From a virus (taxonomy: Duplodnaviria > Heunggongvirae > Uroviricota > Caudoviricetes), in IMG/VR virus record IMGVR_UViG_2737471833_000002: a DNA stretch of 64,000 nt. The stretch is one strand, 5' to 3'. The position numbers were made by a program. Below, piece after piece: positions 24,201 to 30,200 of this stretch. Within the stretch, counting starts at the first letter, position 1. Each line of letters opens with the position of its first letter.

Positions 24201-27200
24201 ATTGCCAAAATGAACATTGAAAAATGGACTAAGGAATGTGAAAAGAAATGGCGCAAAAAGAAATGACTACTCTAACGACAGCATACTTACAGCAATTGGT
24301 ATTTTTTGCAGGCGAGGCTACTTGTCATCCTGACGCAAACTATTTATTGGAATTTGAGAGGTTAGCGTCACCCGGTATCGTTCTGGAACTGGCCCAACAG
24401 GTGCTGGCCTTGAGACAAAAAGAGCAACATGAAAGTAATACGTGTAGATTGAATTTTGAGCAGTGGCTGGAACAGCAACGCGGAAAAATCGATGTGGACT
24501 GTGGTTGTGTGTCCACTGAAACATTCATGCACTGGCTGCGGGTAGCTTACGAGGCTGGCAACTATCCGGATATTCCGGATAGTTCGGTGCCAGCGCCAGG
24601 AAAGGGCGTCACCGGTGAACGTATCCGCATTAAGCCGCATGTTTATCGCGAACTGGTTAACCGTCTCCACGATACAGCGATCAAGTGTGCTGGCACCCAG
24701 CAATTACGAGAAAGAATTAGCCGTGTTTTGGGCGACGTTATTACGCCATATCATCATAAACAAGCCGAGAAAAGCGGTCTGGAAAGGTGTCATCTTGAGG
24801 CAGCATTAAACATTAAGCCGGGGCATACGCTTGGCATTATTGATGCACTGTTGGTTCATAAGATGGCCAGGGCTTTATTGTCGTTGGTGGACGCTGGTGA
24901 TACAAGCGAGGGTGAAGTATGAGAGTTGCAGATCACATCAAACACCTTGAAAGAATTATCGAAAACGGTGAACTCTTAAGAGATCAGATGAGACGCACGG
25001 CAGAAGCCAGGGAGGCGATAATCCGCAGTCAGGCTGGTAAATTAAAGCAATTGTCAGAGATTAACACGCTATACAAGAACAGACGTAACCGGGCGGTGAT
25101 GCGGCTTCAGAAAGCACGTAATGAAATTAAATTGGTGGAGGCAAAACTGAAAAAACAGATCCAGCGTTACGATCAGCAAGATGCTTTTTATGCCGCCATC
25201 AAGGCGGCTGCTAATGAAATAGGCATCTGGAAGTTGCTGGTGGAGAAAGCAAAGACGAAGTTAAATGCCAACGAAAGCTGAACTACAGGTGCCCACCAGC
25301 ACATACAGAAAATGATTGTTTCCACATCAAGGAGATTTTAATGTTTCACTGAAACATTAAGTAAGCCAGTGCATAATTCCATTTTTTACTGACCTTAAAA
25401 GCAAAATCAAAACGATGATGAGGATAATAGCCAGAATCTGGCTAATAATAGGCGCATCTAAAAATGCACTCAGGAACTGAAAAAAAGCGTTCATTCAGGT
25501 GGTTCCTTGTCAAATGTAAAGGTGCACTTGCTCACGTTGACGTAGAAACCCAACCCCTATATAGTTGGATTCGGTGAATGAAAGTCGTTAACGTGAGCTT
25601 ACGGCACATGTTTTCGGAAAAACATCAGGGAACGGCTAATTCCTTGATGCGGGTGGGGTCTGTAATGCAGACCCTATCTATTAACGTCATGATTGCATCT
25701 CAAATTTTCTCCTTATCTTCAATTAATCTACATTCATTTCATCTGTTAGCCACCACAATATGTAGAAAATGGCCCTCTTGCAAGTGCATAACTTTGTGGA
25801 TAACTCAGGAAGGAAAAAGTGGCTTTCGCGCACCTTCGGTCAGACAAGGTGTCCGGGAAAGTCAACGCAAAGAAAAAAATTGTTAAAAATAACGTTTGTT
25901 GGAATTGTATATTTTTATCCCCTTCAATGGTTAGCATTCTATTAACATCTTTTTTTAGAGACAGAAAAACATATCGTAACAACATATATACAGTGTTAAG
26001 AGGCGAGTATTATCCTGCGGTGGGAATTCTGGGCGCTGTTAGATTCGACTTTCTCAGCAGGATTACATCGTCAACTTGCGACGTTGCCGTATGACTTTCG
26101 TGTGATAGGTGACAATGATGCGGCTAGTGAGTTACTTGTGAAGTTTTTCGGAAAAGGTTTTGTGGCCTCGGATCTTGATGAGCTACAGCAACATGAAGTG
26201 TCTAATTTGATTTTTAGCTATAGCCAATAAGCCTCCCTCCTCCATCAAGGCCACAATTTGTGACCTTAAACAATTTGTTTTCTGCTTTTTCTTATTTGAG
26301 AAAATAACGTTGTTGACAGCTAATAGGCTCATTGTTGTTATACATGCCTGTATAGATTATGACCGTAAATTATTAGCGGATTTTAAGCCATATTCACCGT
26401 TGTAGAAATTACTCATGTTCCATTCATTAGGAAGTTCTTTTCTGTCCAATGTATAGTGGCGCACGATATAACGATCTTCATCTTCTTCGATGGACAGGCG
26501 GACATAGCCAATGTGAATCACCGATACGGGCGGTGTTCGTATTGCATAGATGTCGCGGAGATATACCGGCAGCTCGACAAATGCATCAGGTGCATCTGTG
26601 ATGCTCGTTTTTTCACAGTATTCATATAACGCATCGTTGATATCGTTAAGAGATTCATGATCGTATATTTCCAGGTAATTACCGCGATCGCGATGGTACT
26701 CGATTTTAGCCATTCAAAATCCTCTGTTATCGTTTTGCATTTCTCTAATCCGGTTCAGAACTACTTCGTGCTGGACTTGGATAGCGGCTTTTTCGTTTTC
26801 AAGCCGGGCAATAGACATCTCTAATTCTTTGCTGTACCAGGCGAGCTGGGCCAGGTTCATCCGGTTGTGGTCGAGAGTTGGAGACACTTCGACGCGATCC
26901 CTTTCTTCCTGCTTTAATGAGAAGAGATTCATCTCATCCCTTGAGGAAAATTCAGCAACAATTTCTTGTTGATGATCCGGTCGCTGCGGCATCCTCGCCA
27001 GTATAAATGGCGGTTCTTTTGAAAACATGAATGACGGTTTAGACCGTGTTTTGACCCATCTAGCTTGCTGTCTTTCGGCAAGTTCACAGGCTTCATCATA
27101 GTTATCTACAAAACCAAGCACGGATGGACGGTCCCACGCGCCACCATTCAGACAATAAACAAGAATTTTCCCGTCAGGTTCTGTAACTCCATAGGGATGG

Positions 27201-30200
27201 TCCCACCAGGCGTCCAGCTGGGCTTTGGAGCGTTTCTCGTTAGGAGTGCAGTCAAAATTTTTGGGCAATGCAGGATCGAGAGGAATGCGGGCAGGCATGG
27301 CTAATTCCTTATTAATTGATTAGTAACGAGGTTACGCTGATCCAGCGGTGATGAATAGTAGCAAAGCGCACAAAGTCATCAGAGGGGTTAAGATCCATAA
27401 CGCGTTTGCACCAAAGGTGTCTCTTTAATGTATACTGTATAAATAAACAGTATTATTGAGGTGAAAACGCTATGGGCTTCCCTTCTCCTGCGGCGGATTA
27501 TGTTGAAAGCCGAATTTCTCTTGATCAGCAACTAATCAGGCATCCATCAGCAACCTACTTCATGCGGGCAGCTGATAGCCATCACCGTGAGGGAATATTG
27601 CAGGGTGCTTTGCTGGTGGTTGATTCTTCGCTTACTCCAGTTGATGGTTCGCTGCTTGTGTGCGCTATGGAGGGTGAATATCGCATAAAGAGATACCGAA
27701 AGTATCCGCGCCAGCACCTGGAGGATTTAAGCACCGGGAAGAAAGAGGCGTTACCAGTAGATGACGATGGATGCACGGGCAGTAATGCTGTGTTTGGTGT
27801 GATCACTCATGTCATTAATGATGCCCGAAGTGGGGAATTTGATGATTGTCCGGTGATTTAAGCTGCAAAGTGCTGGTGCTTTATGCCTGTGAAGTTTATA
27901 ATTGTGTACACATAACGAGTACACGAGGTGTTTATGCAATCCATTAACTTCCGTACCGCGCGCGGCAACCTTTCTGAAGTGCTCAACAATGTTGAAGCCG
28001 GGGAAGAGGTTGAAATCACCCGCAGAGGCCGTGAGCCAGCAGTAATTGTCAGCAAGGCTACTTTCGAAGCCTACAAAAAAGCGGCGCTGGATGCTGAATT
28101 TGCATCCCTGTTTGACACCCTGGACTCCACCAACAAGGAACTGGTTAACCGATAATGAGGCATATATCACCGGAAGAACTTATTGCGCTTCATGATGCGA
28201 ATATAAACCGCTACGGCGGCCTGCCGGGAATGTCAGATCCGGGTAGGGCAGAGGCCATTATCGGGAGAGTTCAGGCCAGAGTTGCCTACGAAGAGATCAC
28301 CGACCTTTTCGAAGTCTCCGCCACCTACCTGGTGGCTACGGCGAGAGGGCATATATTCAATGATGCCAATAAGCGTACCGCGCTAAACAGTGCGCTGTTA
28401 TTTCTACGCCGTAACGGGGTGCAGGTATTTGATTCACCTGAACTGGCAGACCTTACCGTAGGGGCTGCGACTGGCGAGATATCTGTATCTTCTGTCGCCG
28501 CCACGTTACGTAGATTGTACGGTTCTGCGGAGTAGATTAATGGCACGCAAATACAACAAATTGTCCCGTGAAGCGTTAAAGATGCTTCTTGATGGCGTGA
28601 GTCGCCGCAAGGTAAAGCAATACCTGGTTGGTAAGCAAATTGGAGTCAGGACCGCTATTGCTGTGTTATGCCGTCAGGAAATGGTTGTGCTTAAACAGAG
28701 AATGCCGGGCAGCAGATAAAGCCCAATCAGTGATTAAAGGTGTGATGTGAAAGCCGTAATTACTCCCTTTGTACAGAAAGAGCTTGGCCTCGCCACGTTC
28801 AAAGTGGATCAGGAGGTCAGAAAGCTGGTGGAGGCTGGCCGTAAATTTATTATGGAGCCGGTGCCGCGTGAGTTAATCGAGCACATGGAAGACGGCCTCG
28901 TTGTTACCGAGCAAACCATGGCAACAAATGAGGCGTTGCAGCCGTTTTTTAACAGCGATGAACTGTTTCGCCGTATTGGTGGAATTGACGCGCTGGTGGC
29001 GTGGTTGCGTAGGAAAGAGGGTCAATGCCAGGCCGCAGATCGTAGTTGGTGTGACAATCATATTGTCCACGCTGAACGAGACAATAGCGCGGTGTTGTTG
29101 TGCTGGCATCACGATAACCATTATCGGATGCGTGGTTTTAATGAGCTGAAAGAAACGCTGCACAATAATCGCGTTAACTGGATACTGGATGTCGCCCGTC
29201 AGGAAATGGGCCTTTCAAATAGCCATGATTTAAGTATTCAGGAGCTGTGCTGGTGGGCTTTCATGCGCAACATGATGCACCTGATGCCGGAAGAAGTCTG
29301 CCGCATATCAATAAATAAGATGAAGGCTACTCCGCAGGATAGCGGACCTCTGAAAGAGGCGGATATTCGCCCGTATGACGATCGCGCTACAGCATATGTT
29401 CAGATGATGGAAGAACGCGCCGCGCCGATGCGTGCAAAAGTATGCCCTGTGGATGTTGACTCCGACCCTGGCATGGCGCATTTCAGAATACCAAAACTGC
29501 AATCGCTAAAATTACCTGAGTACATGGACTTTGTTGCTTCCCGTCCATGCTGTGGGTGTGGAGCTGCGGGAGCTGGCGCTCACATTACGCCTTATATCGT
29601 TCGTCATAGTCGATTATGCGCGCATGACATTTACGCAATTCCTCTGTGCCAGTCATGCCAGCGTGATATTGAGCGTGACCGCGATAATTGGGAGAAGATG
29701 CACGGTAGGTTGGCGATGCATCAACGATTGTTCTTTGATTACGCGCTTGGAGTGGGCGTTATCACAAGTCATTCGTCGAGCGTTAGATAAAATTGCTCTA
29801 ATGTATTGCTATTTCTTTAATCGAGTGTATTATATTCCACGTTGATTAGTTGACATGGGCTAATCAGTAGGTGACAGGATGTTACTTAACTGGCAGGGAC
29901 GCCACTTCATGGAAATAAATCACTCACGAATAACATCGTACGAGATTGCGGATTACATGATCCGCACTAAATCTCTTCTATCAGCGAAAGAACTCGCAGC
30001 AATTCTTGAAAAGGAATACCCACATCTGGATGTCGATAAGCGCGATGTTTATCTGCGCTTAAAGGCTATCGCTGTGTCTAAGTATTCGTCTGTTTTGATT
30101 GATGACAGTACACGCCCACGTAGATTTCAGATCCACTCTCTGAATCCTGAATTCTTTCGCCGTAGCCGCGCTCCGCGCCGGTTTGATGAAAAACTCCAGA

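Follow-up and report, generated by a model that had tools for sequence, protein, structure and literature searches.

An lxr–upf93.6 gene pair divergent from humD in a P1-like virus genome, probably a P7-type allele of a known variable region

The DNA analyzed here, referred to as the window, is the whole 64,000-nucleotide stretch of the Caudoviricetes virus record IMGVR_UViG_2737471833_000002. Two abutting minus-strand genes encoding proteins of 194 and 118 amino acids point away from humD and the LexA box beside it, an arrangement that had been reported in a preliminary description of this DNA and was confirmed by the list of open reading frames (ORFs). Judged by sequence comparison, the larger gene is an ordinary lxr orthologue and the smaller one is upf93.6 of phage P7; this assignment was based on BLASTP against P1 Lxr, on the P7 annotation and on the coverage by PHROG families. 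The features of the locus are the following (window coordinates).

26714..27298, minus strand: lxr (P7 name upf94.2), 194 amino acids, ATG start; from the ORF list, PHROG and BLASTP.
26357..26713, minus strand: upf93.6, 118 amino acids, ATG start; from the ORF list, the P7 annotation and PHROG.
26714..26725, minus strand: lxr/upf93.6 junction; sequence read directly.
27306..27310, minus strand: lxr ribosome-binding site AAGGA, 7 nucleotides (nt) 5' of the lxr ATG.
27433..27452, no strand assigned: LexA operator TACTGTATAAATAAACAGTA in the divergent lxr/humD control region.
27472..27861, plus strand: humD, UmuD'-like, the divergent neighbour; Peptidase_S24 match with E = 5.7e-9.
25903..26763, no strand assigned: segment without P1 counterpart (probable P7-type allele); from blastn breakpoints and composition.

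The 194-residue product matched P1 Lxr with 92% identity over 189 residues (BLASTP, E = 3e-137), and PHROG 6164 spanned it end to end (1–194 of 194, E = 2.8e-132). Likewise, PHROG 5797 covered the complete 118-residue product (1–118 of 118, E = 3.8e-77). Thus, the initial view that the pair may be a replacement for lxr and hot fails for the larger of the two genes. In the P1 record, lxr (86837..87409, 190 amino acids, "LexA regulated function") is a minus-strand gene, and hot, a plus-strand gene with a late promoter, converges with it; a LexA site is annotated "in the regulatory region of lxr and humD". This site is annotated in the P7 record too, where the two genes are named upf94.2 and upf93.6 (585 and 357 nt, respectively) and each is given an "unknown protein function". 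By megablast of positions 26000–27900 against phage records, a 97% match over the whole stretch was obtained in P7, in Salmonella phage SJ46 and in two records named "P1", while P1 itself aligned only from window position 26764 rightwards. The same arrangement was present in MH422554.

From P1, this slot had been expected to hold lxr and hot. The former was there and the latter was gone, with a best E of 0.98 for tblastn of P1 Hot against the whole window; the comparison with P1 was imprecise in one detail, since hot in P1 lies on the opposite strand, convergent with lxr and outside any lxr operon. That the 118-residue gene lacks a P1 counterpart was supported by blastn and the P1 annotation. 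Equally, neither product resembled DNA polymerase III theta, and no recognisable motif was found in either by Pfam, NCBIfam and PADLOC, where nothing scored above threshold, Pfam also being run over all alignment members.

The lxr stop codon TGA (26714–26716) directly abuts the upf93.6 start codon ATG (26711–26713), giving TGAATG, and a ribosome-binding site AGAGGA (26720–26725) lies inside the lxr 3' end, 6 nt 5' of the upf93.6 ATG. This junction, together with the ribosome-binding site within the end of lxr, suggests that the two genes are translationally coupled. The ratio of non-synonymous to synonymous substitution rates (dN/dS) against close alleles was 0.17–0.28 for lxr and 0–0.47 for upf93.6; both genes are under purifying selection. 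An Rfam scan of 25200–27900 returned no RNA family.

By blastn, window positions 24547–25902 corresponded to the P1 pmgU–upfO stretch, and positions from 26764 onward to P1 lxr–humD. Given the breakpoints at 25902 and 26764, the segment 25903–26763 is without a P1 counterpart. It stands in for the −10 box of the P1 hot late promoter, for hot, and for the last ~40–50 nt of lxr, and it contains upf93.6 and ~450 nt with small ORFs only. Its G+C content was 0.36–0.43; across 25150–26650, G+C fell to 0.36–0.41, compared with 0.48 window-wide. The low G+C of 25150–26650 fits the published AT-rich character of P1 variable regions. The pap–lxr region is known as RD-5, a documented hot-spot of variation among P1-like phage-plasmids with alleles "closer to P7" (PMC6906374), and was also named "region 8" and linked to low G+C (PMC9603915).

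The haplotypes were surveyed in 39 IMG/VR loci encoding Upf93.6 (single loci are given below by their L numbers). The layout of humD, LexA box and lxr–upf93.6 was found in 33 of them. The pair had been proposed as a new replacement module; its layout, already annotated in P7 as upf94.2–upf93.6 and present in SJ46 and MH422554 as well as in these 33 loci, argues against novelty. Seven of the 33 (L045–L051) also carried a convergent hot directly after upf93.6. In these seven (locus positions ~3416–4626), upf93.6 occurred as a variant of 115–120 amino acids with a differing C-terminus (…GLKPTKNGAGIA). With this third haplotype for comparison, upf93.6 seems to have been cleanly lost in P1, and hot in P7 and the window. 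As lxr, upf93.6 and hot occur together in L045–L051, upf93.6 is, on the evidence of gene content, not a substitute for hot. Three of the 39 loci (L053, L057 and L058) were deletion remnants without lxr and without the 5' part of upf93.6, and thus the locus is deletion-prone. In these remnants, only Upf93.6 residues 21–118 or 63–115 were left, adjoining humD. A further arrangement was observed in phages D6 (L073) and RCS47 (L074; locus positions ~1090–2240), which had no lxr and carried hot co-directionally, just 5' of the conserved LexA box and humD, along with an unrelated 116-residue gene transcribed in the opposite direction. This minus-strand gene was considered as a possible relative of Upf93.6 and was rejected by sequence comparison. 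The gene contents compared here indicate that lxr, upf93.6 and hot were gained and lost independently. The lxr–upf93.6 pair was kept in the diverged P1-like loci L015, L016 and L054–56, with a gap of 10–16 nt between the genes and with 63–68% identity for Lxr and 54–58% for Upf93.6.

The LexA box TACTGTATAAATAAACAGTA, noticed before and confirmed here, matches 18 of 20 consensus positions; its distance is 20 nt to the start codon of humD and 134 nt to that of lxr. The lxr/humD intergenic DNA was 95% identical to that of P1, in which the LexA operator was reportedly shown to control humD in the work of McLenigan and colleagues from 1999. In the diverged locus L015, a LexA box matching 19 of 20 positions (TACTGTATACATATACAGTA, 4293–4312) was found 108 nt upstream of the lxr homologue. 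The gene divergent from it in L015 encodes 84 amino acids; it is not humD and had no Pfam match. Across the window, the pattern CTGT-N8-ACAG occurred three times versus 0.7 expected by chance. The further matches were located at 36434–36449 and 3874–3889; the former (acCTGTAAATCCATACAGct) is intergenic, ~140 nt upstream of a 73-residue ORF (36593..36814).

An AlphaFold2 (AF2) model of Lxr, built from a 33-sequence alignment, had a mean predicted local distance difference test (pLDDT) score of 89 and consisted of a compact alpha/beta domain (residues ~25–130) and one long helix (149–192). In the best heptad phase of this helix, 9 of 13 a/d positions were L, I, V or M, a pattern that points to a C-terminal coiled coil. 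Full-length homologues (189–199 amino acids) were found mostly on P1-like contigs and on some Klebsiella IncFIB plasmids. The N-terminal domain (N-domain, ~125 residues) also occurs alone, as proteins of ~130–148 amino acids across Proteobacteria, among them Salmonella, Klebsiella, Pseudomonas, Xanthomonas, Bradyrhizobium, Mesorhizobium and Burkholderia. At least 871 clusters at 90% identity and at least 904 PLSDB plasmids encode this stand-alone form. Its members were 45–67% identical to Lxr residues 1–125, with WWD(H)P, CLNGGAWDR and QRPD invariant, and the domain was ~55% identical between alpha- and gamma-proteobacterial elements. Among the N-domain matches listed, there were no domain fusions and no Pfam domain. 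The segment QLDAWW was considered as a beta-clamp-binding motif and rejected, as several members have D or E in place of the Q and this stretch forms a helix of the folded domain.

The stand-alone N-domain gene was observed in several contexts. On ~47-kb Pseudomonas/Xanthomonas plasmids (L007–L010, 5790–7040), it follows a 66-residue ORF and overlaps the start of a serine resolvase gene by 4 nt, which suggests a three-gene operon of the 66-residue ORF, the N-domain gene and the resolvase gene. In Klebsiella phage-plasmids (L011–L014, 6001–7763), it is followed by a HEPN_Toprim_N/HEPN_RiboL-PSP gene and lies inside a replication module with genes for DNA polymerase III alpha, a RecA-like protein, a gp32-like protein and a 5'-3' exonuclease. 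Elsewhere, it was found near RepB and Trb genes, and among small-ORF arrays, toxin-antitoxin pairs, ArdC and DUF736.

Upf93.6 is acidic (isoelectric point 4.8) and was modelled by AF2 as a small alpha/beta protein with a pLDDT of 78. Its family is small: a word-based search gave 18 matches, and an exhaustive profile search added ~17 relatives of 100–123 amino acids, down to ~28% identity. A profile search of genome contigs with Upf93.6 revealed no relatives. BspA-type LRR_5 proteins (P0130, P0134, P0136 and others; E of 1e-10 to 1e-4) were rejected as probable repeat artefacts because each matched in many weak stretches covering only query residues ~16–70. Upf93.6 homologues were found after a 320-residue protein resembling a winged helix-turn-helix protein on Salmonella plasmids, after an Mrr_cat protein among HEPN and PLD genes, and after an uncharacterised 136-residue protein. 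The 320- and 136-residue proteins were compared with Lxr and were unrelated to it. On a 35-kb MOBF/MPF_T E. coli plasmid (L061, 4146–5342), a string of ssb, korA (TrfB) and a upf93.6-like gene (38% identity) near stbABC looks like a plasmid establishment region. In PLSDB, close Upf93.6 homologues were present on ~135 plasmids and the Lxr coiled-coil region on ~220. Given these unequal counts and the Upf93.6 homologues located behind unrelated genes, the comparisons indicate that the two families are separable.

The function searches were negative for both proteins. In PADLOC-DB 2.0, no family reached E ≤ 1 with either. Weak matches to DUF7491 (a coiled coil) and DUF7588 were below the cut-offs of these families and were discarded. 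Profile searches against PDB sequences gave matches at chance level only (E ≥ 0.039), and no solved fold was matched by either protein. A literature search turned up no functional study of the two. A genome-wide CRISPR interference screen of P1 classified lxr, hot and humD as non-essential (PMC10695390).

The locus is best, and with modest confidence, explained as a P7-type allele of the lxr end of the known P1-like variable region, carrying a coupled lxr–upf93.6 accessory pair that would act on the host. A leftward transcript would start in the lxr/humD control region, and lxr and upf93.6 are probably translated from it as a coupled pair. Both products would be non-essential accessory proteins directed at the host rather than at phage morphogenesis. 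Lxr may be a coiled-coil oligomer, its strongly conserved N-domain possibly binding DNA or a conserved component of the host; that this domain has changed so little between distant hosts speaks for a conserved target. Upf93.6, which is small and acidic, could tentatively act on its own as a protein-binding factor like those of plasmid establishment regions. Expression would most likely be raised on LexA cleavage, LexA repression being the source of the name lxr, and we infer SOS control of the lxr–upf93.6 operon indirectly, from the 18/20 box in the shared control region and from the 19/20 box beside a different divergent gene in L015.

Several points weigh against this explanation. D6 and RCS47 retain the LexA box without lxr, and no LexA box was found upstream of lxr in L016 and L054–56 or upstream of any short-form homologue examined; the box may therefore serve humD alone. 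No sigma-70 promoter matching at least 8 of 12 positions faces lxr, where only 7/12 matches were detected. Only one of these (−10 TACATT, 27427–27432) overlaps the LexA box and would be occluded by LexA; a candidate near 27360, which has an extended −10, would escape occlusion. Adjacency of the two genes is kept across ~40% protein divergence, so their products could cooperate rather than act independently. Finally, no library scanned predicted a biochemical function for either protein.

A wider interpretation, in which the Lxr N-domain and Upf93.6 represent two uncharacterised mobile-element families that in P1/P7-type phage-plasmids form a LexA-wired host-manipulation module switched on by DNA damage or single-stranded DNA (ssDNA), is regarded as rather unlikely. 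If it were true, the module could modulate the replisome, RecA or the SOS response, or serve as an anti-defence pair, and establishment regions of conjugative plasmids would share it.

It is quite improbable that Lxr is a sequence-specific DNA-binding regulator that dimerises through its coiled coil and controls phage genes such as humD, Upf93.6 being a passenger. The family is called "DNA-binding protein" in NCBI and UniRef entries, an automatic NCBI name, and the C-terminal helix is of the dimerisation type. Moreover, lxr is divergent to a regulated gene, and some short forms share a transcript with a resolvase gene or are located near replication genes. Despite the NCBI name, no recognisable DNA-binding domain or fold was found in Lxr, and this disfavours a regulator.

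Lxr and Upf93.6 might also form a two-component system, either a toxin-antitoxin pair or an effector with its inhibitor or chaperone, in which Upf93.6 binds, neutralises or regulates Lxr. The abutting and apparently translationally coupled genes, the conservation of the pair in diverged P1-like elements and the small, acidic nature of Upf93.6 would suit such a system, as would the frequent position of Upf93.6 homologues directly 3' of a variable gene, like that of swappable immunity or antitoxin genes. However, full-length Lxr occurs without Upf93.6 in P1 and on Klebsiella IncFIB plasmids, Upf93.6 homologues follow KorA or occur without any Lxr, and the PLSDB plasmids with the Lxr coiled-coil region (~220) outnumber those with close Upf93.6 (~135). 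Since the genes are separable, a toxin-antitoxin function is disfavoured; in addition, neither protein matched a toxin, antitoxin or PADLOC model, and knock-down of lxr in P1 was without phenotype (PMC10695390). A two-component system is thus considered highly doubtful.

There is likewise only a slim chance that the pair is a foreign cargo module for defence or anti-defence that replaced lxr and hot of P1, as had been suggested initially. The segment 25903–26763 lacks a P1 counterpart and has low G+C, hot is absent from a region known as a recombination hot-spot, and one Upf93.6 homologue has Mrr_cat, HEPN and PLDc genes around it. For the lxr half, however, replacement is refuted, as the first gene is Lxr and only its last ~40–50 nt lie in the variant segment. 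Furthermore, lxr–upf93.6–hot haplotypes exist, PADLOC gave no matches, and the layout is common among P1-like elements and annotated in P7. That one or both ORFs are chance open frames, as the lack of a family annotation for either might suggest, is practically negligible in view of dN/dS values well under 1, full-length homologues down to 28–55% identity, ribosome-binding sites and confident AF2 models.

With the P7-type allele as the preferred explanation, the feature is real but ordinary: annotations of its genes and layout have existed for years in P7 and many P1-like elements. What remains of interest is the role of the widespread and unusually conserved Lxr N-domain family. The lxr gene adjoins a LexA operator and is flanked on one side by the gene of a UmuD' homologue and, in P1, on the other by that of a homologue of polymerase III theta. 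Identifying the target of Lxr could uncover a new means by which mobile elements tune DNA-damage or replication functions of the host.

Among known systems, P1 Lxr (P1_gp102, YP_006568.1) is 92% identical over 189 of 194 residues and is encoded at the same position and in the same orientation, divergent from humD over the LexA box. The two proteins differ in their final ~15 residues (…VVLNRIREMQNDNRGF in the window versus …AVIARIREVQNG in P1), owing to a P1/P7 recombination breakpoint ~40–50 nt inside the lxr 3' end. The window gene is followed by upf93.6, whereas the P1 gene meets hot head-on. P1 Hot, like E. coli HolE, is not similar in sequence to either window product; in P1, hot fills the slot adjoining the lxr 3' end, but on the other strand and with a late promoter. 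The P7 proteins Upf94.2 and Upf93.6 (AF503408; AAQ07574 and AAQ07573) are 94% and 99% identical to those of the window, with gene order and spacing alike and 97% identity at the DNA level. P7 carries a copy of IS903 ~260 nt downstream of upf93.6 (equivalent to window position ~26093), where the window has no insertion sequence.

A family of ~133-residue "DNA-binding proteins" from plasmids, regions resembling integrative and conjugative elements and SSU5-like phage-plasmids shares the Lxr N-domain with its invariant motifs. It differs in lacking the C-terminal coiled coil, and in the examples examined neither a LexA box nor upf93.6 was a neighbour. The establishment or leading-region genes of conjugative plasmids (ssb, psiB and ardA/ardC type) are comparable by analogy only, as neither protein has sequence or fold similarity to characterised anti-SOS or anti-restriction proteins. 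As in the present pair, these genes are small, acidic in product, non-essential and restricted to mobile elements; their expression is linked to ssDNA or the SOS response, as may be that of the pair. Physical proximity adds to this likeness, with a Upf93.6 homologue directly after ssb–korA near stbABC on 35-kb MOBF plasmids and Lxr N-domain homologues near ArdC and DUF736.

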